Positions 75-21,239 of a stretch of 64,000 nt of DNA are shown here, piece after piece. The notes under the pieces are model-generated. The model ran no database searches. It saw only the letters and a program-made list of their open reading frames with translations, and was not told the origin of the DNA. The stretch covers positions 51,845 through 115,844 of the forward strand of contig CAVWMH010000006.1 of the NCBI GenBank assembly GCA_963756075.1, read 5' to 3'. The first letter of the stretch is position 1; each line of letters starts with the position of its first letter. The stretch comes from Candidatus Dormiibacterota bacterium. GTDB lineage: Bacteria > Chloroflexota > Dormibacteria > Aeolococcales > Aeolococcaceae. The position numbers and the translations under genes are program-made.

Positions 75-1196
75 ATGAACCGGTCGAGATCAGCGATGCG
101 ACGTCGGCTGCGTGCTGGTTCGATGGCCATCGGGACGTCGATAGCCCTGCTGTCCGTTGTGGGCGCAGCCGCCGGACGCAGCGTTGTGAGTGACCCCGGG
201 ATGCTTCCCGGCACGATCTTTGTTGCGAGCCCGCCCGCCGGGGCCACCGGGCCCGACGACATCACCCGGCTTGCAACACCCGGGGTCGACAGGGGGCGCG
301 CGCTCATCTGGACGGCGTACCAGAATGGGATCAACCCGGATGGGACGCCTGGGACGCCGGGCGGACCGACCAAGAGCGCGATCGCCGGCTACGATCCGAT
401 CGACGGAACGCTGGTCAAGACGATCTGGGTGACAGGAAAGGCTGACGGGCTCACTGCTGACCCGGGCATCCACCGTCTGGTCGTCACCGTCAACGAGGAC
501 AAGAATTCGGCGCTGTATCTGATCAACGCCGGCACCGGAGAGGCGACCCGGTTCCGCTACGAACCGTCGCCCGCTGAGAACGGCAACGGTGGCACCGACA
601 GCATCGCGATATGGGGCGGCCGTATCGTGCTCGCACACTCCAACCCCAACGACACCGAGGAGGTGACCGACTACACGGTGGACCTCGATCGCGCATCGCG
701 GATTGCGCATCTCCGCGCGCTCTTCTCCGATGACAGCAGGGCTGTCGATGCGCTCACACACACGACCGTGACGCTGGCACTGACCGATCCCGATACCAAC
801 GGCGTCATTCCCGATGCGGCTCCGCGATTCGCCGGTCAGCTCGCAACCATCAGCCAGGCAGACGGTCAGATCGTCTTCGCATCCATCCGGCACGGCGATC
901 GGGACCTGACAGTGCTCAACGTCACCGACAACGTCGCCGGAAACATCCCGCCAATCGATGGGCTCGCAACCGCGACCGCCGAGCGCGGCACACTCTTCGT
1001 CGTGGATGCGAAGGCCGGTACGATCACTGCACTGACGACCGACGGTTGGCCTGCAGGGACCGTCTTCGTCGGCGAGCCGAGCGACAACGGCAATCCGCTG
1101 ATCGGCACACTCAACCTGTTCACGGGCCAGATCACCCCGCTCTCCAACGCGTTCCTCAGTCCGAAGGGATTGCTGTTCGTCCCTGCTGATTCATGA
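75..1196 (+). CDS. Secreted hypothetical protein, probable beta-propeller (NHL/YVTN-like)
   Basis: RBS AAGGAG upstream; Arg-rich N-terminus plus hydrophobic signal peptide; beta-rich repeats (GPDDI, KADGL, GTDSI, PIDGL, SPKGL). Confidence 0.65.
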   Translation: MNRSRSAMRRRLRAGSMAIGTSIALLSVVGAAAGRSVVSDPGMLPGTIFVASPPAGATGPDDITRLATPGVDRGRALIWTAYQNGINPDGTPGTPGGPTKSAIAGYDPIDGTLVKTIWVTGKADGLTADPGIHRLVVTVNEDKNSALYLINAGTGEATRFRYEPSPAENGNGGTDSIAIWGGRIVLAHSNPNDTEEVTDYTVDLDRASRIAHLRALFSDDSRAVDALTHTTVTLALTDPDTNGVIPDAAPRFAGQLATISQADGQIVFASIRHGDRDLTVLNVTDNVAGNIPPIDGLATATAERGTLFVVDAKAGTITALTTDGWPAGTVFVGEPSDNGNPLIGTLNLFTGQITPLSNAFLSPKGLLFVPADS

Positions 1197-1259
1197 CGTG
1201 GACCTCGCGTCCCGACGTAGCGGCCAGAGCAAAAGCGCCGTCAACGTGACGTGCAACCC

Positions 1260-1821: not shown

Positions 1822-2609
1822 TCAGCCGGACGTCTGCTCCATCACCCAGCGATAGCGGGGATCGATGAACACGCGCATGGCGCGCTCCTCCCCGGCGAGG
1901 ATCCAGAGATAGTAGAGACCGTGACCTGGCGCCGCCACGAGCGGATGGAAGCCGGAGGTGATCGCCGCCGCGTCGCCGTCGCGCACCATGCGCAGCGTTT
2001 TCCGGTCCGCCGTCGGTGTCGTATCGAACCTGCACCGCAAAGCCGTTGGCCGGATGCACGCGGTAGTAGTAGACCTCCTCAAGCCGCGCCTCCTCTGGCA
2101 ACTCCCGATCGTGCCGATGGGGTGGGAAGGACGACCACGTTCCGGTGCCGGTGTGCACCGTCTCACCGACGATGAGTCGCGAGGCGGGATCATCCGGTCC
2201 GAGGATGGTCCGGACCGTCCGGCCCCAACTGTCGCGTCCGACCACGACCTCGCGTTGCGTCGCGCCTGCGATCAAGCGTGCCGGGCCAGATGGCAGCGAG
2301 CCGGCGGGTGCGGCGGCGACGGCCATCGTGAATTCGGTTCCATCGCCGTCTCCTTCCGGCATCAGCACCACTGACGACGCCGGCGGGAGATAGACGGCGT
2401 CGCCCGCACCCTCGAAGACGTCCGATCGCCCGCCCACAGCACCGAAATCCTGGCCGTCAACCGTGGCGGTCGCACGCCCGGAGAGGATGACAGCCAGCCG
2501 TTCGTCTCCGGGACCGAGCACGATCGATTCTCCCGGCTGCGCCGCAACCAGGTCGAGCGAGATGTGTTCGGTCTGTTCGCCGGCACGGATCAAGGACGTG
2601 AGGTTGATC
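1822..2609 (-). CDS. iolB: 5-deoxy-glucuronate isomerase (IolB/KduI family), frameshifted near 2000; start uncertain
   Basis: Motifs GGRSDVF, LIVGE, WSSFPPHRHD, LEEVYYY in one frame; continues VRDGD..GFHP.VAAPGHGLYYLWILAG in the adjacent frame. Confidence 0.8.
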
Positions 2610-2613
2610 GCGC

Positions 2614-3715
2614 CTACCCCCGAGCGGGGTCGGGGATCAACACGTCGCGCACGAAGGCGTTCAAGTCGCCGCATGCTGCGCAGAACTGGCGCAGCGTGTT
2701 CCGGGTCGCGCCGAAAAAGTCGAACTCCTCGACGCTGAGCCCGTGCTCCGTGTAGGCGCGGCGGAAGTCCTCGAAGTGCGCGAGCAGTCCGTTCACCACC
2801 CTTGGATCCACCGGGATGTCGATGCGCGGGATCACCTCGATGTCGCTCGCGTTGATGCGCTTCTGCCATGCGGACGTCGGCGAGACCACAGCATCGGCGC
2901 CGATGAATTCGCTCCAGTGCATGTGGTTGCGAAACGCAGCGGAGAGCAGCCGGATCCTATACCCGCGCTCACGAAAGATCGCGTACGTCTTCTTGAAGAC
3001 CGCCACGCCGGCCCACTCGAGATACCCGGGATCGATCGCGATCCGCTCTCGCTCCATCACCACCCGGAGCCAGTCGTCGAGACGGCCGACCATGATCGTG
3101 CAGACCGGGCCCATCGACGCGATGTCCTTGCCCTCATGTTCCCGACGGCGCAGCCCGCGCTCGACCGCCTCGGCAACCGCGATGCACTGGGGGAGCGTGA
3201 AACAGACAGTCGCGTTGATGCTGACTCCCTGGTGCGTCGCCTCCTCGATGGCGGGGATCCCGGCGCGGGTCACTGGAATCTTCACGATCATGTTCGGAGC
3301 GAGGCGGCTGAACGTGAGTGCCTGCTCGACGATCGCGTCACTGTCGCGAAAGAACCGCGGATCGGTCTGGATCGAGAGGCGGCCGTTGCGCCCGCCGTGT
3401 GTTTCGAAGATCGGTTCAAGGAGCTTCGCCGCTCGGATCGAGAGTTCCTCGACGAGTTTCCAGGCGATGGTGTCCTCGGTGGCCGTGGGGAGCTCGTGAA
3501 GCAGCGCTTCAGTGCGCGGCCGCCATGTGGCCGCGTCACCCGCGAGCACCGCCAATGCGATCACCGGATTGCAGGTTGCCCCGACGGCCCCGTGCTCGAT
3601 CGCGTAGACGAGCTCGTCGATCGCGGCCGAGTTCGTTCCAGAGACGCGTCGGCGTCGTCTGGGTCATCTTGTGGAGCGGGCTGCGGTACGTGACGATCGT
3701 CTCGGCGCTGGTCAT
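2614..3715 (-). CDS. Transaldolase-family protein, frameshifted near 3630
   Basis: N-terminal TRLWN, then GATCNP, GRLSIQTDP, MIVKIP (Schiff-base Lys), SINATVCF, MVGRLDD, LSAAFR. Confidence 0.85.
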
Positions 3716-5967: not shown

Positions 5968-6630
5968 GTGGTGGCACATGACGTGGCGGTGGCCGAGAGC
6001 GAGGCGATGGAGCCCGCCGAAGCGACGTCCGCAGATCGCCGCCCCCGCGCCGATGCGGTCCGCAACCGCGATCTGCTGATCACGGCGGCAGCCGAGGCCT
6101 TCGCCGCCCGGGGCGCCGATGTGCCCCTCGAGGACATCGCCCGGAACGCCGGCGTCGGCATCGGCACCCTCTACCGGCACTTCCCGACGCGCGAGTCGCT
6201 GGTCGAGGCGGTGTACCGCCACGAGGTCGACGTGCTCTGCGAGCGGGCGGATCAGCTTCTCGAGTCGATGCCACCCGAACAGGCGCTGGCGGAGTGGATG
6301 CAGCTGTTCGTGGTCCACGTGGCCACCAAGCGGGGCATGCTCTCCCTGCTCAAGCCGATGCTCAGCACCAACCCCAACTTCTCCGTCCAGACCCGTGGGC
6401 GTGCCACTGCGGCTGCGACCAAGCTCCTCGAGGCCGGCGTCGCCGCAGGGACGATCCGCGCCGATGTCAACGGAGGGGATCTGCTCCGCGCCGTGGGCGG
6501 CATCTGCATGTCGACGGACCAGGAGCGGTCAGCGGCATCCGAGCGCCTGGTGGGTCTTCTTTTCGACGGCCTCCGCCACGGCGCAGCGGGCTCACCGAGC
6601 GCGACGCTTCCGGGAGACGCGTCAGCCTAA
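5968..6630 (+). CDS. TetR/AcrR family transcriptional regulator
   Basis: RADAVRNR..., LEDIARNAGVGIGTLYRHFPTRE HTH; alternative start at 6007. Confidence 0.93.
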   Translation: MVAHDVAVAESEAMEPAEATSADRRPRADAVRNRDLLITAAAEAFAARGADVPLEDIARNAGVGIGTLYRHFPTRESLVEAVYRHEVDVLCERADQLLESMPPEQALAEWMQLFVVHVATKRGMLSLLKPMLSTNPNFSVQTRGRATAAATKLLEAGVAAGTIRADVNGGDLLRAVGGICMSTDQERSAASERLVGLLFDGLRHGAAGSPSATLPGDASA

Positions 6631-6658
6631 GACGCAGTCCTCGCGCGGAGCCGCGAGC

Positions 6659-6701
6659 GCAACCAGGCTGCATGGAACCTGCAATCGGGGGTGCGCAGCA
6701 T
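6659..6701 (+). promoter_or_regulatory. SARP-type direct repeats (11-bp phase) plus -10 box upstream of the cupin gene
   Basis: GCAACC (6659), GCATGG (6670), GCAATC (6681), then CAGCAT at 6696-6701. Confidence 0.6.
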
Positions 6702-6752
6702 GCCTCCCGAGGCACCACTGATGGTGCCAAGCGGATTCACAGGAGGCATGCG

Positions 6753-7118
6753 ATGCCAACGACAGTCTCGGCGGAACACAAAACTCTGAGCAGCCCCGAC
6801 GAGGAGCGGGTCTTCGAGAAGGGACGGGTTGATCTCGTCACTATCGGCGGTGGCACGGTCGGGCGACTGACCCTGGAGCCCGGGTGGCGGTGGTCGGTGC
6901 ACGTCAAGCCGATCGCCGGGACCGAGCTCTGCGAGGCGCCGCACTTTCAGTACCACGCCTCGGGCGTGCTGCGCATCCAGATGGCCGACGGCAGCGAATT
7001 CGATGCACGCACGGGCGACATCACCGCTCTGCCATCGGGCCACGACGCATGGGTCATCGGCGACGAGCCGGTTGTGCTCATCGACTGGAACGGCGCGAGC
7101 AACTACGGCAAGGCCTGA
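6753..7118 (+). CDS. Cupin domain protein
   Basis: RBS AGGAGG at 6741; LEPGWRWS.HVKP, CEAPH and PSGHDAWV motifs. Confidence 0.88.
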   Translation: MPTTVSAEHKTLSSPDEERVFEKGRVDLVTIGGGTVGRLTLEPGWRWSVHVKPIAGTELCEAPHFQYHASGVLRIQMADGSEFDARTGDITALPSGHDAWVIGDEPVVLIDWNGASNYGKA

Positions 7119-7173
7119 TCCGGCGCTGTACATGCCCCCCTCGGGCGGACCGGCGGCACGTATCCTAGGTGCC

Positions 7174-10100
7174 GTGGTCCGCGCCGAGGCGCCGCCGTCG
7201 GTGCGCCCGGTCTCGCCGCCGGACGCGGTGCGAATCCGCGTCATCGACGGGTTGTCAGTTGAAGGGTTCGCCGAGCACGAGCTCGGCAGCCGCAAAGCGC
7301 GGCTCGCGCTGCGGGTCCTCGGCATCGCGCAGGGACGGCCGGTGAGCATCGAGCGTCTGGCCGACGTCCTCTGGGTCGATGACCAGCCGCGAGACCCGCC
7401 GGCGCAACTGGCGGTGATCATGAGCCGGCTGCGGAGCGTCCTGGGGCCAGCGCGTATCACCCACAGTGATTCGGGGTACGCGCTGCACGCCGACTGGGTG
7501 GATCTCGCTGCGGCGTCGGAACTCGCATCCGAGGCGGATCGGCGTTTGCAGGAGAACGAGACTGCGCCTGCGCTGGCTGCGGCGATGGCCGCGCGAGCGC
7601 TGCTCGCTCATCCCGCGCTCGACGACGAAGCATGGCCTGGGGAGGAACGTCGTGCCGTCGAGCGGCTCTGTGCACGAGCCCGGCACCTCGTCGCCCGCGC
7701 GGCACTTGCTGCCGGGGATCTCGCCACCGGTGTCGAGGCTGCCGAGCAGGCTCTCGACGAGGACGCGTACGACGAGGAATCGTTGCGACTGGTGATGGCG
7801 GCACTGGCTGCGCAGGGCAGGTCCTCATCGGCACTGGCGATGTACGAGCGCATGCGTGCCAGGCTCGCTGACGAGCTGGGCACATCGCCATCCGAGCAGA
7901 CCGACGCTGCGCACGTCGCGCTGCTCAAGGGGCTCGCCGTTCCCGGCATCGTCGTCGCGTCCCCCCAGTCGCGCCCCCACCGACAGGGTGGCGGAACGGA
8001 CCTGCCCGGGCGAGAGGACGAGTTGCGGGTGCTCGACGAGGCGTTTGTCCGCGTGCAGACGGGCTCCCCTGTGGCCGTGGTCATCGAGGGTGAGCCTGGT
8101 ATCGGCAAGACCGCAGTGGCCGCGGCGTGGATCGATCGCCTCGACGCGGGGACCGTCGTCCTCACCGCGCGCTGCGACCAGCTGAGCAGGTCGTTGCCGC
8201 TCCAGCCCGTCCTGCAGATGATCCGCAACCATCTCCGCAGAGTCGGCGCGGACATGGGCCGGGAGCTACTCGGCGGCGACGCATCGCTGCTCGAAGCGAT
8301 GCTCGACTGGACGTCGATCGAGACCGAGCCGCTCGGCGACATCACCCAAACGCAGACATCGTCGCTCGCGGGTCTCGCCGTTGCGTTCGCAGCATTGCGA
8401 CGGGTCGTGCGGCGGGCGTGCTCATCACCGGCCGTGCTCTTCGTCGACGACATCCAGCGTGCCGACCCGCTCACGTGGGCCTGGATCGACGACCTGGTCA
8501 CGAGCCCGGACATCCCGCTGCTGGTGCTCCTCACCCGCCGAACCGGTGAAGGAGAGGTACCGCCTCAGGCGATGCGTCTCCCGCTGTCGCCACTCTCGCT
8601 CGAGGCTGCACGAAAGATCGTGGGGGAAGAGCATGCACGCCGGCTTCACGAGCGCAGTGGCGGCAATGCACTGTTTCTGACCCAGCTCGCGTCCAGCGAC
8701 GAGCGCGCCGCGCCGCCGGAGTCCATCCAGGCGGCGGTACTGGACCGCTGCGCGGAGGCCGGCCCGGCGGCGCGGACGTTGACGAGCGCGGCCGTCCTCG
8801 GGGCTTCCATCGACATCGACGTGCTCGCGGCTGTGCTCCGAACCGATCCCATCCGCCTGCTCGAAGACCTCGATGTGGGTGTGCGCCTCGGGTTGCTCGA
8901 GGCGCGCGACGGCGGGTATGCCTTCCGCCACGCGGTCGTGCGCGAGGTCCTCGACGCGTCCACCGCGTCGCCTCGGCGTTCACTCCTTCACCGCGAAGCC
9001 GCACGCGTGTTATCGACGAGGCCGGCTGCGGATCCCCTGCTCGTCGCGCACCACGCGAGGCTCAGTGGCGCCAGGTCACTCGCATCGTCGGCGCTCACCG
9101 CAGCGAGCCGCATCGCCGCCGACCGCTTCGACTACGCGACTGCGCTGGATCTGGCCACCGAAGCCATCGAAGCCGATGACACGCCAGACGCCCGGGTGCA
9201 GCGCGCGATCGTCCAGCTGCGGCTCAATCGGTTCGATGCCGCGCAATCGGATGCGCTGATCGCGGTCGAGAGCGCCGCCGATTCGCGAGCGCTCGAGGTC
9301 GCGGGCTCAGTTGCCTATTACTGCAAGGATTTCCAACGCGCGGCGGCACTCGGCGAGGCGCTCATCCAGCAGGCGAGCGACCCAGCACAGCGGTTGCAGG
9401 GACAGGTGATCCGCGCTCGAGCGCTGCACGCGATCGGCGATGTCGCAGGTGCGGACGACGTGCTGGAGAGTGCGATGGCCGCGTCCCGCAAGCACCGTCT
9501 TCGCCCGCCCACGTCGATATACGCGTTCCTGAAGGTGCACATGGGCGAAGCGGGGCTCGCGATCAGCGCCATCGAGGCAAGCCCGGCGGCGGCGGTCGAT
9601 GCCGGGTCCACCATCTACACGCCGGTGCACGCGTATCTTGCCCACGGGTACGCGCTGGCGACCTGTGGTCGCGCCGGTGAAGCCCTTGGTGTCCTCGAGC
9701 GCGGGACGGCGGAGGGGCGGCGGCGCGGCCTGACGCGGTATGCGGCGTTGGGCGTGAACATCGGCGCCTGGGTGCTGTCGCAACATCGGCGAGGTCGCTC
9801 TCGCTCGTGAACGCAATGCGGCCGCGCTCGAGGGTGCGCGCGATTCGGGATTCCGGGAGCAGGAGGTCTACGCCGTACTCGCCCCCTGCGACGACGCGAT
9901 CGCTGCCGGCGACCTCCGCGCAGCGAGCCATGCGATTGATGCCGGACGGACCCTGATGGAGGACGCGTACGCGTACCGGTGGCGCCACGAGTTGCGTCTC
10001 GATGTCCTCGAGGGACGGCTCGCGCTGCTGCGGGGCGATCCGGATGGTGCGCTCGTCCTGGCACAACAACTCATCGCGACAGCGACCGCCCGCTACGCAC

Positions 10101-10402
10101 CGCGATATGCGCAGCTTGGCGAGCTGATACGCCTGCAGGCGCGCGCTGCGCTCGAAGCCGAGCCGCCGCCCGACGATGCCCTCGCGGAGCTGAGCTCGTC
10201 GCTGTCCGCCGTCGCCGGGGTTGAGGCGTGGTGGCTGATGGCGGACCTCGGTACCTGGCTCCGGTCCGACGTGTGCTTCGAGCTTGCTGCTGCGCACCGC
10301 GACCGGCTCGCCGGCCACCTCGACGCGTCCGCTCGCGCGGTGTTTCTCGACTACGCCGGGGCGCGACTCGAGAGCACGAGGAGGCGCGGCCGTACCGGCT
10401 GA
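7174..10402 (+). CDS. SARP/BTAD - AAA (STAND) ATPase - TPR-like transcriptional regulator, frameshifted near 9780
   Basis: N-terminal wHTH+BTAD (LADVLW, YDEESLRL, LADELGTSPS), Walker A GEPGIGKT, VDDIQRAD, SGGNALF, FRHAVVRE; helical C-terminus continues in the 9956-10402 frame; TATCCT lies 7 nt before GTG 7174. Confidence 0.85.
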
Positions 10403-11151
10403 CCGCGCTCGCGTACTGCGGCGACGGCTCGGGTGATGAACTCTGTGCGCCGGGATTCGGGCAGCGACGCAACGAAGGGCGCGATGTGCGCAAGTCCGGT
10501 GCGATATGCCGTGATGGCCTCGGGCTCGTCGAGCCCGGAGTCCACGGTGACGTCGGCGATCTCGATGTCCACCAGGCCGGCGGACTCGGCGCAGCGCCTG
10601 AGCAGCGGGGGCGTATTCGATAGTGGCTCGGTACGGGTCTTGAGTGCGATGTACCAACTCGGTAGCACATACCCACAGTCCCGAGCGACCTCGTCGACCG
10701 CGTCCTTTGATGCGCCGGCGGGCGCTGCACCGAAGACTGCGGCGATCACCCGGCCGCCTGGTCGCACCACGCGCCGCATCTCCGCCAGCGCGCGGTCAGG
10801 GTCGTCGATGTGCGAGATCGCGAACCCGCTGACGGCGGCGTCGAGCCGGCCATCGCTGAGGGGCAACGCGCACATGTCGCCAACCAGCGCGAGGGCGGTC
10901 GCATCACCGATCAGGCCGAGCATGTCACGCGACGTGTCGACCGCGACGGGGATCGCCTCCGCCACTCGAAGCGCGCGGCAGAGCGCGCCGGTCCCGGCGC
11001 CGACGTCCAGCACGATCGCACCTCGAAGCTCGGGCGCGACGCTCTCGATGGTGACCGTTGCCAGCTTGTCGTACAGCGCTGCCGGTCCCCGAGCCCATGC
11101 CGTTGCGACGCCCTCGTAGGCGTTGCGCGGTTCGAGGTCTACGGCAGCCAT
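10351..11151 (-). CDS. Class I SAM-dependent methyltransferase
   Basis: VLDVGAGTG motif I, GDMCALP, AEMRRVVRPGG; own ATG at 11151. Confidence 0.85.
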   Translation of the reverse strand: MAAVDLEPRNAYEGVATAWARGPAALYDKLATVTIESVAPELRGAIVLDVGAGTGALCRALRVAEAIPVAVDTSRDMLGLIGDATALALVGDMCALPLSDGRLDAAVSGFAISHIDDPDRALAEMRRVVRPGGRVIAAVFGAAPAGASKDAVDEVARDCGYVLPSWYIALKTRTEPLSNTPPLLRRCAESAGLVDIEIADVTVDSGLDEPEAITAYRTGLAHIAPFVASLPESRRTEFITRAVAAVRERGQPVRPRLLVLSSRAPA

Positions 11152-12147
11152 TCGGCGAGACGGTCGCTCCACCACCCGAACTCGGCGTCGTCCTCGGCCT
11201 TGTCCCAGCACAGCTGGAGGAAGGCTCCCGACAACGCCGCTGCCAGCTGCGCGTCCCACCAGGACCCGGTCTCGATGCCGGCTGAACTCGAGCGCGGCTC
11301 TGTACGCGCCGATCGCTTCCTCCTTGGTCTCGGGAAGACGGTCGCAGTTCACCGCGAGGTACCAGGCGAGATCGAGCAGGGCCGACCCTGCACCGGTCCG
11401 ATCCCAGTCGAGCAGGATGGTTCGCGAGCCATCGCGGCCGAGATTCCCGAGCTTCCAATCGCCATGGACAAGCGTCTGCGGTCCGGCGCGAAGCGCCGCG
11501 ACCAGCGGCCACGGATCCTCCATCAGCTCACGAAGCCGTCTCGCGTCACGTGGATGGCGATCGTCGATCCGGTGCCAACCCGCAGCCACGGCGAGGGGCA
11601 CCGGGTCCGCATGAGCGTTTGCGGCCTCCAGCGCAGCCATCGTGGGAGTGAGGAAGACGTAGTGATGGGCAAAAGGAAAGAGGTCCGCGTGGTCTCGGAA
11701 TCCCCAGTAGGCGGCGTGAAATGCCGCCATGTGCGCCATGAATTGGCGGTGCACATCGAGCGCGATCGGCTCGCTCCCCGAGGGAATCAGTGCTGCCGAC
11801 ACATCGCGCAGCAGGAGCGCAAGCCCCTGATGCCCGTTGCTTGTGGCGAGGGGAGCACATCCCACGATCGCGTGATCGATGCACGCGGGGAGCGCCGTGA
11901 GCACGCCGGACGAGAGCAAGGTCAGCTGACGCCGTCCGAGATCGCCTGTGGCGCGCATGATCCAGTCATCGTCGACGGAGATGTACTTCACGACCATCGG
12001 CGTCCCGTTGACGACGACCCGTTCGAAACGGCTCCCGGACAGCCCATCGGCTGTGCTCCAGGGTTCGCGATGCTCGTAGCCCTGGAGCAACCGGTCGAGC
12101 GAGTCCGCAACCGGAATGGGGCTATGTGCCGGCGAGAGCGTGGTCAC
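11139..12147 (-). CDS. Aminoglycoside/choline-kinase-like phosphotransferase, frameshifted near 11285
   Basis: VVKY, HGDWKLGN (Brenner motif), LLDW, DLAWYL; after a 1-nt shift it reads GIETGSWWDAQL...WLP* ending at 11139; GTG overlaps the upstream stop. Confidence 0.8.
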
Positions 12148-12527
12148 AAGAGCGCGGCCTCGGCCATCTCCGCCTGGAGGGCCGCGCCCCACCTGCCGCC
12201 GCACCACGCGCGATCGTGCGTGATGAATCCGTCGCGGACCCGGATGTGGTGCGCCTGGTGGGCCATGTGTGGCTCCCCGTCCTCCTCCCATGTGAGCACG
12301 AACTCGAGGAGCTCTCCGTCGGGCAGGGCGGTCCGCTGAATCTCCTCGAAGCGCCCCGCGTCGGCATACCAGCGGCCGAGCTCGGCCTCGATGTTGGCGG
12401 CGCCGTTCACGACAAACCGCCAGTGGGGGACTGTCGCATCGAGAACGGCGTCGTCTGCGAACACACCTGCTCCAATGACGGACGCGGTCTCGATCGCCCG
12501 GGTGAACCTGTCGATGGGGTCGGTCAT
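12144..12527 (-). CDS. SnoaL/NTF2-like protein
   Basis: FADDAVLDATVP.W, VRDGFI.HD..WCGGRW; RBS AGGAG. Confidence 0.75.
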   Translation of the reverse strand: MTDPIDRFTRAIETASVIGAGVFADDAVLDATVPHWRFVVNGAANIEAELGRWYADAGRFEEIQRTALPDGELLEFVLTWEEDGEPHMAHQAHHIRVRDGFITHDRAWCGGRWGAALQAEMAEAALL

Positions 12528-12560
12528 GGTGATGCTCCTGGTGTTATACGACGTACCCGC

Positions 12561-12592
12561 ATCGTGTATCCGGTTGATTGCAGTCCGATTGC
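12561..12592 (-). promoter_or_regulatory. SARP-type direct repeats plus -10 box upstream of the SnoaL operon
   Basis: GCAATC twice on the minus strand (12592-12587 and 12581-12576, 11-bp phase), then CACGAT (12566-12561). Confidence 0.6.
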
Positions 12593-12806
12593 GGCTGCCG
12601 AGCGGCACCGGTCATCGACGCCGCACGATGGCGCAGTGACGTCTGAACCGCCGGTCTTCGGCGCCGTCGGCCTCGGGCTGACTGGTCTGCCGATACCACG
12701 CAACGTCGGGGCGGGGGCGATTGCCCGCGAGTGGTTCGCGCGGACCTCCTGAGGTGAGCGGGTGCCGCTGTGACCTGGCGCCAAATGTACGATTGATGAA
12801 CCTCTC

Positions 12807-13769
12807 GTGACTGTCGTTCTCGCCCCTGTAGATGCCGTCGACGTGACGCTCGTGATGGATCTGTCGCTCGACATCCTCATGTCGGGGCAGGACGGTGTTC
12901 AGCGATTCAAGCTGGCATACGACTGGTCGGATCACGACTCGCTGCTGGCGGAACATGGATTCTCAGCGCTGGTAACCGTGACGGTGAACGGCACTCGTCA
13001 AGCGGTCCTCTACGACGGTGGCCTCTCGCCGATGGCGCTCCAGCACAACCTGGATGTCATGCAGGTCAACGTGACCACCCTGCGCGCCATCACCATCTCA
13101 CACGGACATGTCGATCATCACGGCGGCCTGGAGGAACTCTTCCGCCGGCACGGCGCACTGCGGCTGCCACTCATCATCCATCCGGACGCCTGGAGGGACC
13201 GCAAGGTCGTCATGCCAACGGGCGCGGAGTTGCACCTGCCGCCACCCGACCACAACGACCTGGAGCGCGAGGGGCTCACCGTTATCGAGGAACGCGGCCC
13301 GACGCTGCTCATCGACGGCACGGTCCTGGTCTCGGGCCAGGTGGCCCGTGTGACCTCCTATGACAAGGGGTTTCCGACCCAGATGGCGCGGTCCGGCACT
13401 GGCGGGGAATGGGAACCCGATCCTTGGGTATGGGACGATCAGAACGTGGTCGTGAATGTGCGTGACCGGGGACTCGTCATCGTCTCCGGGTGCTCGCACT
13501 CGGGGGTCGTCAACGTCGTTCGCAACGCGCAGTCGCTGACCGGAATCACGCGGGTTGCCGGGCTGATCGGTGGCTTCCATCTCACCGGCGGACTGTTCGA
13601 GCCGCTCATCCCGCAGACGGTCAACGACATCGCCGCGCTTGGGATCGAGCGAATCGTGCCGGCGCACTGCACCGGGTGGCGTGCGATGCACGCACTGGCG
13701 AAGGCGCTACCGGACGCGTTCGTCCAACCGTCGGTGGGGACCGTCTTCGAGTTTCGTGCCCCGGCCTGA
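12807..13769 (+). CDS. MBL-fold metallo-hydrolase
   Basis: AEHGFS, SHGHVDHHGG, GCSHSG, GGFHL, PAHCTG. Confidence 0.9.
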   Translation: MTVVLAPVDAVDVTLVMDLSLDILMSGQDGVQRFKLAYDWSDHDSLLAEHGFSALVTVTVNGTRQAVLYDGGLSPMALQHNLDVMQVNVTTLRAITISHGHVDHHGGLEELFRRHGALRLPLIIHPDAWRDRKVVMPTGAELHLPPPDHNDLEREGLTVIEERGPTLLIDGTVLVSGQVARVTSYDKGFPTQMARSGTGGEWEPDPWVWDDQNVVVNVRDRGLVIVSGCSHSGVVNVVRNAQSLTGITRVAGLIGGFHLTGGLFEPLIPQTVNDIAALGIERIVPAHCTGWRAMHALAKALPDAFVQPSVGTVFEFRAPA

Positions 13770-17949: not shown

Positions 17950-20900
17950 TCAGCGAGGATTGATCGACGCCGCCTTGCCGGGGAAAGGAGCGGGTTCCAC
18001 CCCGAGATCGTCCATGGCGCGGCGGTAGTTCAGGTAGTGCCGGTGAGCCTCGCCGTGCCGCCCGGAATCAGCCAGCCCGTGCACGAGAGCGAGATGCGCC
18101 TGCTCGTCGTAGCGGTCCGTCTCGAGGATGCGAAGCAGGTGGGTCACCGCCGCGTCGGGATCGGCGGAGTGCCGGGCGAGCAGCCGCAACGCCGCCACGT
18201 ATCCGGCGCGTGCCTCCTCACGGAGGGCGACCGCCCAGTCGTCGTACGGATTCTCCTCGAGGAAATCACCCGTGTAGAGGACGGTCGCGGTGCTGAGGAT
18301 CGGCAGTCCGCGCGCCGTATCCCCGCGGCGCAGACAGTCGAGCCCGTCCGCCGTGGCGGCGAGAAACCGCTCGACGTCGACGTCGACCGCGTCCAGGTTC
18401 AGCGCGACCGCGTCCTTGTCCGCGAGAACGAAGTGCTCGGGCGGCGAATCTGCGTTGCGGGTCGAGCACGCCGCGCACCGTGGTCAGGGCCACTGACAGG
18501 CGATTCGCCACGCGATCGGGGTCCTCGCCCGGCCACAGCGTTTCCATGAGGTACCCGCGCGGCCCGGGACGGCCGCGCCGGGCGATCAGGAGCTTGAGCA
18601 GCTCCCGGGCACGCTTGGACTGCCACTCGGAGACCCGGACCAGCTCACCGTCGCGAAACACCGAGAACCCGCCGAGTGACTGGATCCGCACCGCCACGCG
18701 GTCTCGTGGGCTCAGGAACGTCAGGAGGCCGGCCGCCACGTTGCCGCTCTGATGCGCGCGCACCCCGAGCGCCTCCAGTTGCAGCTCCGCTTTGCGGCGC
18801 AGCGCCGCCGACCCGGCTCCTCTGTCGATTGACGCGAGGACAAGATCCACCTTGGCCTCGCCAAGCGGGTTCCCGACCTCCTCCCAGATGGCACGTGCCT
18901 CGGCGAGGCGTCGAGTGGTGACGCGCGGATCCTCGGCGGTGACTCCCGCGAGCGCCAGTGCATCGGCCAGCCCCGGCCGGTCGTGGCGGCCCCGCGCCAC
19001 AGCCTCGGCCTCCGCGGCACGCTCACGAGCCCGAGGCACGTCGCCGCCGGCGGCGGCAATCCAGCCGGCAGCCAGGAGCGCGATCACGTAGGCCATGCCC
19101 GTGCCGTACGACACCGCGCGATCGGCAAGAGCTCGCGCCCGGTCGGGATCCTCGCCGGCCACGACCATTGCGAGGCAGGCCAGCGCCGGAACCAGCCCTT
19201 GCACATCGCCCGACTGCTCCGCGATCTCGACGGCTTCCTCGAGCATGACGCGCGCCTGGGCGAGGTTGCCGCGTTCGCTGTACACCTCGCCGATCAACGT
19301 CAAGGGGTACGCCACCATGTCCGAGTCGATCTGCAGGTAGCGCAGTCGCGAGGCCTCGAGGTCGGTCAGGGCGTCATCGATTCGGCCCATCCGCAGCTTG
19401 GTCTCACCTCGGTTGCTCAGGCTGAGCGCCAGGAAGCTCGCGAACGACGTGAGCTCCGCGAGACGTACCGCCACGTCGAGCTCCTGGAGTGCCTCGGCGT
19501 ATGAGCCCTCCTCGAGAAAGTGCGAGCCGCGATTGGTCCGGATGCGAACGACCTGGAGCACGTCTGACGCCTCTTCGGCCGCGCGCAACGCAAGCAGGTA
19601 GTGCGCGTCATTGCCACGCCGGTCTCCGTCGAGAGCCGCGAGCATCGCCATGACGGTGTGCGCGGCGGCGAGCGCTCGGTGATCGCCGCACGCGTTCGCG
19701 GCGGCGAGGGCCCGGCTCGCAAGCTCCCGGCAGGGCTCGACGTCGCCGCGAATCCAATGTGCGGTCGACATCCAGGCCAGCAGGAGCGCCATCTCCATCG
19801 GATCCGCCTCGTGATCGTCGATCCCCCGCTCGTAGACGGCAAGCGCCTCCTCGTGCTCACCGCGCAGGTAGTGGATCAGCCCGATCCGCCACGCGAGGTG
19901 GGCGGGGAGCGACTCCCGGCCCGCGGTGGCACGCTGAAAGCACGCCAGCGCTTCGCTCCAGTCGCCCTGGATCTGCTGCGCTTCGCCGTCGAGTTGCTCG
20001 ATCTCGGTGGACCGCATCGCCGGCGGGATGGCTCGGCACGCGCGCAGGACGGTGGCGATCTGGCCGGCCGCGAGCAGTCTCGCGCCCTGCTTCGCGACCA
20101 TCGTGGCCAGCTGTTCCGATGTGCTTGCCGAGAGCAGCACCTGGATCGCGTCAGCGGACTGGCCATTGGCGTCGAGCCAGGTGCCCGCCGCTCACGCGGA
20201 GATCCTGCGCGACCGCCTCGGCAACCGGGAGCGACTCGAGCGCGTAGTCGCGGATCAACGGTCGCAGCGAGAGGGACCCGTCCTGTCCGCGCTCGACGAA
20301 GAGACCCTGGCGCGACAGTTCGACGAGCATGGATCGCGACCCGACCATGCCGATTGCCTCGCACAGCTCAGGCGTGAACCGCTCGAAGAGCGCGAGCTTG
20401 CTGACCAGGTCGCGAACCGCGTCGGGATGGCGCGCGAACACCTCTTCCGCCAGGTATGAGAACAGCGGGGCGCTGGGCTTGTCGAGGCCGGCGAAGACGG
20501 TGCTCCAGGTCTCCTGCGGTGATGACTTGAGCGCCTCGATCGCGAGCGTCACGGCGGCAGGCCACCCGCCCGCGATGCGATGAATCTCCGCCGCGAGTTC
20601 ATCGGCCTTGAGGCCGAGCTGACGCTCGACGAGCTCGCCGACCTCGGGGACGGTGAACGCGAGCTGATTGCCGTCGATCTCGAGCAGCTGTCCCTGTCCG
20701 CGCAGCCGCTCGATCTGAAACGGCGGTTGCCGCCGCCCCGAGATGACCAGATGAAGTCGCGGAGGCGCATGGCGGCACAACGCTTCGACGAGCCGAGCAG
20801 ATGGGCTCGAGGCCGCGAGCTCGTGTGCGTCGTCGATCACCAGGATGAGGTCCGAGGTGAGCTGGGCGTGGAGGATCTCGGCGAGCTGTGCAGCCAGTGC

Positions 20901-21239
20901 ATCAGCACGAAGGAACTGCTCGAGCTCGGGACCGCCGGCACCCTCGGCGAGCCAGCTCACATCGCTCGGGATGTCGGGCACACGAAGGCGCAAGGCGTCG
21001 CTGAGCTGCCGGCCCAGCGTGGGGAGGTCCAGGTCGTGCTGGTCGGCCGTGTACCAGGCACACGGAGCCCGTTCCCACCACGACGCGAGCAGCGTCGATT
21101 TTCCGAATCCCGCTTCAGCCACGACCACTGTCAATCGACGGGTGCGCGCCGTCGCTGCGAGCTGCTCCAACGTGCCGCGCGCGATGAGGCCGTCGGTGGG
21201 GCTCCGAGGCAGGATCTTCGCAATCGGCGTCGCGTCCAC
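17950..21239 (-). CDS. MalT-like STAND NTPase - TPR - C-terminal wHTH/BTAD regulator, frameshifted near 20190 and 18445
   Basis: AEAGFGKSTLL, VIDDAH, GGWPAA, YLAEEV; TPR repeats; LGGFSV.RDG, LWP, YTGDFL, DRYDEQAH, LGVEP. Confidence 0.82.

Follow-up and report, generated by a model that had tools for sequence, protein, structure and literature searches.

Genes and promoters of the locus

The locus described here lies at positions 6659-12592 of a 64,000-nucleotide stretch of contig CAVWMH010000006.1 (assembly GCA_963756075.1), which at its full length is referred to below as the window. It contains five genes. On the plus strand a cupin gene of 121 amino acids (aa; 6753-7118) is followed by the gene of a large regulator of the SARP-LAL type (7174-10402), and on the minus strand, convergent with the regulator, lies an operon of a SnoaL/NTF2-like gene (127 aa; 12144-12527), an APH-family kinase gene (11139-12147) and a class I S-adenosylmethionine (SAM) methyltransferase gene (10351-11175). 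An earlier note on this DNA had proposed that the regulator activates both flanking units through short repeats with the same promoter geometry, and the repeats and hexamers named there were confirmed on both strands by direct reading.

Upstream of the cupin gene, GCAACC, GCATGG and GCAATC start at 6659, 6670 and 6681, a spacing of 11 bp, and a predicted -10-like hexamer, CAGCAT (6696-6701), begins 15 nt past the start of the last repeat. Written as heptads, the plus strand reads TGCATGG-N4-TGCAATC-N9-CAGCAT, with the distal heptad at 6669-6675, the proximal heptad at 6680-6686 and the hexamer 9 bp after it. Upstream of the SnoaL gene, the minus strand carries GCAATC at 12592-12587, GCAATC at 12581-12576 and the predicted -10-like hexamer of the operon, CACGAT, at 12566-12561, which as heptads gives CGCAATC-N4-TGCAATC-N9-CACGAT (distal heptad 12587-12593, proximal heptad 12576-12582). 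A sigma-70 consensus scan of 6400-12900 returned no promoter, and neither heptad promoter has a usable -35.

Conservation and specificity of the heptad promoters

Close relatives of the regulator were found in 25 of the 36 other genomes of the same genus, and 20 orthologous loci were taken with wide flanks for comparison. Their upstream regions were anchored by a loose pattern derived from the window, which is partly circular, and the weight-matrix tests described below address this circularity. The cupin leaders comprised the window and 19 loci (n = 20, L037 left out), and the SnoaL leaders the window and 18 loci (n = 19, with L034 and L044 left out because their contigs end in or next to the SnoaL gene).

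The heptad pair and the hexamer were found at fixed spacing in all 20 cupin leaders and all 19 SnoaL leaders. Throughout these 39 promoters the repeats keep an 11-bp period and a 9-bp gap to the predicted hexamer (9 bp in the heptad frame TGCAATC; 8 bp in the frame GCAATCG), and the promoter geometry that the note had described for the two flanks of the locus is thus that of the orthologous loci as well. On the cupin side, the distal heptad is TGCATGG in 14 of 20 leaders and TGCAATC in 3 (mean pairwise identity 0.83), the proximal heptad is TGCAATC in 16 (0.945), and the hexamer is CAGCAT in 16, with A2 and T6 in every leader. On the SnoaL side, the distal heptad is CGCAATC in 15 of 19 leaders and TGCAATC in the other 4 (0.95), the proximal heptad is TGCAATC in 12, TGCAACC in 3, TGCAAAT in 3 and TGCAATG in 1, and the hexamer is CACGAT in 8. 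Here A2 and T6 are kept in 18 of 19, and the SnoaL side of L050, where TATCCA has a final A instead of T, is the only one of the 39 promoters that departs from an nAnnnT hexamer. Mean pairwise identity amounts to 0.83-0.95 in the heptads and 0.68-0.85 in the hexamer, compared with 0.59-0.74 in the 4-bp spacer, 0.40-0.47 in the 9-bp spacer and 0.33-0.34 in the 33 nt upstream of the heptads. The triple repeat that had been read on the cupin side held up in part: the inner two copies (GCATGG and GCAATC in the window) are kept as the heptad pair in 20 of 20 leaders, but a repeat like the outermost one (GCAACC, 6659-6664) occurs at its position in only three, those of the window and of its two nearest relatives, L031 and L048, and it probably lies outside the conserved element.

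Gene order and gene content were compared across the same loci. The regulator is convergent with the SnoaL-kinase(-methyltransferase) operon in all 20, and the cupin gene lies just upstream of the regulator in 18. In L050 the cupin gene is instead divergent from the SnoaL gene, and L037 had no cupin match within the fetched stretch; the methyltransferase gene is absent from L046, L047 and L049. Of the 11 genus genomes in which the regulator is absent, 8 are also without SnoaL and cupin orthologs, with G005 and G036 having only cupin paralogs (53% and 41% identical). The remaining three are deletion derivatives: G018 (L131) has lost the cupin gene and all of the regulator save the last 55 codons and has a frameshifted kinase, G020 (L132) carries a deletion from cupin codon 71 into the methyltransferase gene, and G032 (L133) one from cupin codon 74 to the end of the SnoaL gene. 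The regulator of G030 (G030:C20) is riddled with stops. Some species are losing the module: the regulator has been removed by deletion in three different ways. Judging from these genomes, the genes of the module travel and are lost together, which agrees with their description as one module in the earlier note.

The specificity of the element was assessed in the window's genome (3.2 Mb, 18 contigs). The exact sequence GCAATC-N5-GCAATC occurs once, which is weak evidence because about 0.4 occurrences are expected by chance from the 1580 copies of GCAATC in the genome, and a mismatch-tolerant pattern search at window level was not above chance (6 found, 5.6 expected from shuffles). The longer pattern GCA...-N5-GCAATC-N9-CANNAT was found exactly twice in the genome, at the cupin and SnoaL promoters. 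Both strands of the genome (6,423,662 positions) were then scanned with a weight matrix trained on 37 ortholog sites but not on the window; the two window sites rank first, with 38.7 and 38.2 bits, and the third-best position scores 15.4. The genome has two sites of this kind, and both flank the large SARP. With a 39-site matrix, seven further genus loci outside the training set (109,845 bp) gave 12 hits above 14 bits, all of them at expected promoters, and 856,944 bp around 71 unrelated SARP-like genes gave a single hit, of 16.4 bits. A genus-wide pattern search returned 57 hits against none for the reversed pattern; this control was not relied on, because the dinucleotides of the reversed pattern are different ones and, given the composition, about 0.6 hits per genome would be expected by chance. 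Outside the module, the sequence GCAATCCGATTGCAA, with the inverted repeat GCAATC/GATTGC inside it, was observed at G000:C7:296951-296965 and also in G036:C99 and G009:C45.

To look beyond the genus, 401 genomes of the phylum, three of which belong to the same genus besides the window's genome (G000), were searched with regulator residues 1-280, and matches at E <= 1e-30 were obtained in six. Two of these six carry the complete module in an order like that of L050, with the regulator first, then the convergent methyltransferase-kinase-SnoaL genes and then the divergent cupin gene: G288, from another genus of the same family (L145), and G129, from another family (L149). Their proteins are 39-50% (regulator), 65-70% (cupin), 52-54% (SnoaL) and 48-52% (kinase) identical. 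The intergenic region that the two divergent genes share in L149 has TGCAAGC-TCTC-TGCAAGC-N9-TAGGAT in the cupin direction and TGCAAAC-GAGC-TGCAAGG-N9-CATACT in the SnoaL direction. In L145, where the cupin and SnoaL genes also diverge, the region between them holds a single array of four TGCA-core heptads with an 11-bp period (13364-13404) that is readable on either strand; 9 bp past its ends come GAGCAT towards the cupin gene and CAAACT towards the SnoaL gene, and the array is possibly a shared bidirectional operator. As both loci keep heptad-N4-heptad-N9-nAnnnT on either side, the geometry has outlasted gene rearrangement and deep divergence.

The large SARP and its proposed reading of the heptads

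In the window the regulator gene is spread over two frames, but intact orthologs have one open frame of 1088-1090 aa from approximate starts, or about 1075 aa from a conserved GTG. A BTAD domain (PF03704) follows directly after the winged helix-turn-helix (wHTH) at residues 123-265, with 63.6 bits in the window and 71.7 bits in L031 against a cut-off of 22.1, and an AAA_16 ATPase scores 82.7-83.3 bits against a Pfam cut-off of 32.6. Neither NB-ARC nor a LuxR/GerE helix-turn-helix was among the Pfam matches of the regulator. The ATPase part also matches TIGR03903, a kinase/cyclase fusion (E 8.3e-19), and its Walker A motif, GEPGIGKT, is invariant among orthologs. A profile of the orthologs aligns across wHTH and BTAD to AfsR 42-341 (E 7.5e-12) and to EmbR (E 1.9e-9). 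An N-terminal OmpR-type winged helix is supported by this alignment, which covers AfsR 42-97 and in which the W, the P and the S-R-L-R of the recognition helix are kept. Six of the AfsR residues named as DNA contacts in the AfsR structure paper (S46, W74, P79, S91, R92 and R94; PMC10936776) are conserved in the regulator and form invariant columns among orthologs down to 44-46% identity, while the residues at AfsR Q48, S80, Q81, R87, T88 and K95 differ, those equivalent to R87/T88 being A/V.

The C-terminal half was characterized mainly through structure prediction. An AlphaFold model of the regulator had a mean predicted local distance difference test (pLDDT) score of 72.3 and a predicted template modelling (pTM) score of 0.49; residues 493-599 were poor, BTAD and ATPase were acceptable, and residues 600-1075 form a helical-hairpin solenoid with pLDDT mostly 85-95. 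The best Foldseek matches were TPR solenoids, the STAND-TPR protein 6mfv_A (rank 4, E 2.7e-8) and Avs3, and by sequence TPR families gave sub-threshold matches only. The regulator is therefore a large SARP with an AAA_16 ATPase and a TPR-like end, the 'SARP-LAL' layout as for PimR, in keeping with the wHTH-BTAD-ATPase-helical-repeat protein that had been recognized between the two units, next to 11-bp-phased repeats at a SARP-like distance from predicted -10 hexamers. It was rejected as an ortholog of AfsR itself: the NCBIfam AfsR model NF053617 scores 47.8 bits against a cut-off of 1430, and the ATPase is AAA_16, not NB-ARC. The adjacent TetR gene (5968-6630) was likewise rejected as the regulator of the module, with no TetR match in 8 of the 20 orthologous stretches (L036, L037, L039, L045, L046, L047, L049 and L050).

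The regulator's own promoter is predicted from TATCCT, a -10-like hexamer at 7161-7166 on the plus strand, 7 nt before GTG 7174. The arrangement TAT(C/T/G)(C/G)T, 7 nt and GTG recurred in 20 of 20 loci in which this start was found (it was not found in L050) and points to a leaderless mRNA. Between the cupin gene and the regulator no terminator was detected, and read-through could therefore provide positive feedback.

The split reading frame was traced to single letters. Relative to L031 and L048, single extra bases are present in the window at 9778, in the regulator, and at 11285, in the kinase. Contigs from four soil metagenomes of four studies have one letter fewer at 9778-9780 and at 11285, and at the latter position two of them are otherwise identical to the window over 314-508 bases. 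Among 20 soil runs that contain the stretch no RNA run was listed, and the four runs compared all gave DNA contigs. Because such near-identical soil contigs lack the extra bases, the frameshifts are private to this assembly or errors; an assembly error or a change private to this genome is the likely explanation of both. Copies of the regulator in the population are intact, and the kinase and methyltransferase genes there overlap but are distinct, as in L031. The gene content of the SnoaL-kinase-methyltransferase operon is thus as the earlier note had it, but the fusion of kinase and methyltransferase seen in the window is produced by the extra base at 11285. Neither the regulator nor the kinase of the window should be labelled a pseudogene before the reads have been checked.

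Several side observations concern related proteins. A second AAA_16 open reading frame (ORF; 361 aa) and a TPR ORF (623 aa) lie back to back on the minus strand at 18266-21236 of the window, and no SARP domain was found beside this pair in the window's contig. Sister genomes carry a SARP-like paralog of 1096-1149 aa, 9-17 kb from the module. On contig C4 of G000, a cupin paralog (886-1248, minus strand; 48% identical) lies 1.3 kb from a small SARP (2475-3326, plus strand), and a similar pairing is seen in G032.

Known SARP systems offer a close parallel for the promoters. According to the AfsR paper (PMC10936776), the direct repeats of SARP targets are spaced by 11 or 22 bp, and 8 bp separate the 3' repeat from the -10; the afs box consists of two 11-bp repeats at -40 to -19, each AfsR protomer contacts the first 8 bp of its repeat, sigma region 4 sits on the AfsR dimer, and the NOD and TPR parts of AfsR inhibit the SARP domain until ATP relieves the inhibition. 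The present promoters likewise show two 11-bp repeats with about 8 bp conserved (cTGCAATC) and about 3 free, and the second repeat, when counted from C 6679, ends 6 bp before the hexamer, as in afsS, for which the same paper places the box at -40 to -19 and the end of the scaffold's -10 at -7. Regarding the SARP-LAL regulators PimR, SanG and PolR, PMC5930380 describes binding to CGGCAAG heptamers with 4-bp spacers, and PMC10972967 describes the SanG and PolR sites as doublets overlapping the -35. The 4-bp spacers are identical here, the heptad doublet also overlaps the -35 position, and the heptamer is similar without being the same: CTGCAAT matches CGGCAAG at 5 of 7 positions, and the CTGCAAG of L145 and L149 at 6 of 7. 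The motif is consequently closer to this consensus than its description as non-canonical in the earlier note suggests.

In protein architecture, AfsR (Streptomyces coelicolor; cryo-electron microscopy entries 8HVR, 8K60 and 8JKE) shares the SARP domain, a nucleotide-binding domain and a TPR-like C-terminus, but it is a global regulator, unlike the local two-promoter regulon proposed here. PimR, SanG and PolR, which were compared by description only, are alike in combining a SARP domain with an AAA_16/LAL/guanylate-cyclase-like P-loop ATPase without a C-terminal LuxR helix-turn-helix. They differ in host, which here is most likely a member of the Dormibacterota and not an actinomycete, and in their targets, which are here predicted to be four small enzyme genes instead of a pathway regulator or a biosynthetic cluster. 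EmbR of Mycobacterium tuberculosis (2FEZ) shares the wHTH-BTAD module, with the E-value given above, but has an FHA domain instead of ATPase and TPR and is controlled by a Ser/Thr kinase. STAND ATPases with TPR sensors (6MFV; Avs3, 8DGC) resemble the regulator in having a P-loop NOD followed by a long helical-hairpin solenoid, although global TM-scores are low (0.13-0.26), the match is mostly to the repeat region, and the effector domains there are others.

Taken together, the locus is probably a small accessory regulon run by a large SARP of the SARP-LAL type that would act at both heptad promoters. The regulator would be made from its own promoter (TATCCT, 7 nt, GTG), probably on a leaderless mRNA, and its ATPase and TPR-like parts would restrain the N-terminal SARP domain until a signal arrives. 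Two SARP domains would then bind side by side on the two 11-bp repeats, each covering cTGCAAnn and about three free bases, with the repeats taking the place of a -35 box. The bound dimer would bring RNA polymerase to the weak nAnnnT -10 located 9 bp downstream, in a class-II-like activation, and the cupin gene and the SnoaL-kinase-methyltransferase operon, on either side, would thereby be switched on. Transcription reading through from the cupin promoter may in addition feed back positively on the regulator.

A number of observations weigh against this reading. Regulator, targets and motif always co-occur, and comparison alone cannot assign the reader of the repeats; the orthologous loci are kin, and their counts are not independent trials. 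Pfam gives the wHTH a weak score (Trans_reg_C, 17.5-19.3 bits; cut-off 26.2), and the model of residues 1-110 is poor (pLDDT 27-58). The -10 hexamers were predicted by rules borrowed from other phyla, not from Dormibacterota. Of the four sites expected in L145 and L149, the genus matrix finds one above 14 bits, the L149 cupin site, and the other three were read by eye and with a loose pattern. Finally, the heptads are intact in G018, G020 and G032 despite the deletion of the regulator, and also in G030, which fits recent loss and equally a different binder.

This persistence of heptads in three genomes from which the large SARP has been deleted is the best argument for the alternative that the heptads are read by another direct-repeat-binding regulator encoded elsewhere, with the large SARP acting at other sites, an alternative that we nevertheless consider unlikely. 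Candidates for such a binder are the small SARP on contig C4 (284 aa), the SARP-like paralog of the sister genomes and an OmpR-family response regulator. The small SARP is 36% identical in the SARP domain and is encoded close to a cupin paralog, and the paralog of the sister genomes lies within the distance of the module given above. However, both sites in the genome flank the large SARP, and the motif is absent from the eight module-less genus genomes, in which the pattern search gave none or other spacer sequences. The cupin paralog next to the small SARP showed no TGCAA repeats in its upstream region, the heptad resembles the published SARP-LAL consensus and the large SARP has that very architecture, and the motif stays with the module in lineages of different gene order.

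It is still less probable that the TGCA-core blocks are a -35-like element with an upstream duplicate, read by RNA polymerase with an alternative sigma factor. The proximal heptad does occupy the -35 location, and the window's cupin promoter reads GGAAC, which we take to be an extracytoplasmic function (ECF)-like -35. Yet two equally conserved copies exactly 11 bp apart, with up to four in L145, and readability on both strands between divergent -10s better fit a tandem DNA-binding protein, and only two such promoters exist in the genome. An ECF-type promoter as such was rejected, as GGAAC is not conserved and most orthologs have GGATCC or GGATTC. That the shared geometry is a relic of promoter duplication without a regulatory role is very improbable, for although the two promoters are alike and the place of the cupin gene with respect to the SnoaL operon has clearly changed in evolution, neutral sequence would decay like the flanks (0.33), whereas the heptads keep their 0.83-0.95 across loci with regulators 46-57% identical and persist at phylum-level distance. 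The regulon proposed in the earlier note therefore stands in its anatomy and in the co-occurrence of its parts, and needs correction as to the third repeat and the description of the motif as non-canonical.

Predicted target genes, probable host lineage and possible meaning of the module

The predicted targets are small enzymes with generic annotations. The cupin gene starts at ATG 6753, not at 6754, behind AGGAGG at 6741-6746, and its orthologs in 19 loci are 75-98% identical; Cupin_2 scores 19.1 bits, below the Pfam cut-off of 27.2, and the nearest atlas clusters are 'cupin domain-containing' (score 0.99). The SnoaL gene starts at ATG 12527 and its orthologs are 60-87% identical; SnoaL_2 scores 18.9 bits, below the cut-off of 27, and the nearest atlas clusters are NTF2/SnoaL_2 (score 0.97). 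The kinase, which is frameshifted in the window, matches PF01636 with 37.5-38.8 bits and ends at the stop 11139-11141. Its GTG at 12147 overlaps the TGA of the SnoaL gene (GTGA, 12144-12147), and this overlap suggests translational coupling of the two genes. The methyltransferase, which may start at GTG 11175/11172 or ATG 11151, matches Methyltransf_11 with 65 bits. None of the four enzymes was above cut-off in NCBIfam.

In the cupin leader, about 10 nt past the -10-like hexamer, lies a GC-rich hairpin or palindrome, GGCACCA-CTGA-TGGTGCC (6711-6728, plus strand). All 20 leaders form a stem of 5-7 bp at this position, and both of its arms carry changes, e.g., GACGCC/GGCGTC in L035; the structure may serve as a 5' stem-loop of the mRNA or as a second operator. 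An Rfam scan of 6000-13200 with E up to 1 returned only a sub-threshold fluoride-riboswitch match, inside the TetR gene.

As to substrates, a search with the kinase gave 817 relatives at E <= 1e-5, and the best 120 of these 817 carry generic names only ('hypothetical protein', 'Phosphotransferase enzyme family', 'aminoglycoside phosphotransferase (APT) family kinase protein' and 'thiamine kinase-like enzyme'), with no substrate named. Our best guess is that the four products bind and modify a small molecule, by phosphorylation and methylation, and that this molecule is perhaps foreign. A more specific and quite tentative proposal, which we think rather doubtful, is that the module is a sense-and-modify device, in which the TPR-STAND part would detect a compound of soil neighbours (e.g., an actinomycete metabolite) and the four products would inactivate or convert it.

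The module does not belong to a biosynthetic cluster. Among the locus genes and 19 neighbouring ORFs scanned (window 75-32567) there was no core biosynthetic family, whether of polyketide synthases, nonribosomal peptide synthetases, terpenes or another kind; the neighbouring ORFs encode, among others, a transaldolase, an exonuclease, an MFS pump, an MBL-fold protein, a glyoxalase, an F420H2-dependent reductase and a RibD_C protein. The location outside any antibiotic cluster, which the earlier note had asserted, is thus borne out by the absence of biosynthetic genes within about 20 kb.

The nine nearest loci in a collection of species genomes (regulator 57-90% identical, all with the module) belong to metagenome-assembled genomes (MAGs) of Candidatus Dormiibacterota/Dormibacteraeota. 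The next relatives, at most 33% identical, come from Solirubrobacterales, Anaerolineae and other Chloroflexota, Acidobacteria, Gemmatimonadales, Archangium and many actinomycetes. From this distribution, the locus is most likely an accessory regulon of a Candidatus Dormibacterota lineage, not of an actinomycete. None of 71 distant SARP-like loci (L060-L130) had cupin, SnoaL, kinase or methyltransferase relatives within 6 kb. Proteins with a SARP domain and an ATPase, 23-33% identical, were observed among these loci in MAGs of Anaerolineae, Chloroflexia, Acidobacteria, Gemmatimonadales and Archangium. A 2024 review states that SARPs are 'exclusively found in actinobacteria' (PMC10972967), and the distribution of L060-L130 is at odds with this statement. 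Our literature search found no paper linking SARPs to Dormibacterota.

What is known here, therefore, is an activator of the SARP-LAL type with heptad doublets, and what is new, as the sequence comparisons support well, is the phylum and the location outside any cluster. A complete SARP-LAL-type regulator with a near-canonical predicted operator in an uncultured soil phylum, away from any cluster, widens the range of the family and its likely roles. With one regulator, two promoters and no third site in the genome, the locus is about the cleanest natural test bed for signal coupling in a large SARP, and it provides a first concrete promoter and operator prediction for Dormibacterota, a phylum whose transcription signals were unstudied as far as our literature search showed. 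If the module is indeed a sense-and-modify device, SARPs would be more than activators of actinomycete 'antibiotic production' and would represent an older and wider family of ligand-gated class-II activators, with a heptamer code (cNGCAAn with a 4-bp spacer) common to Dormibacterota and Streptomyces, by descent or by transfer.

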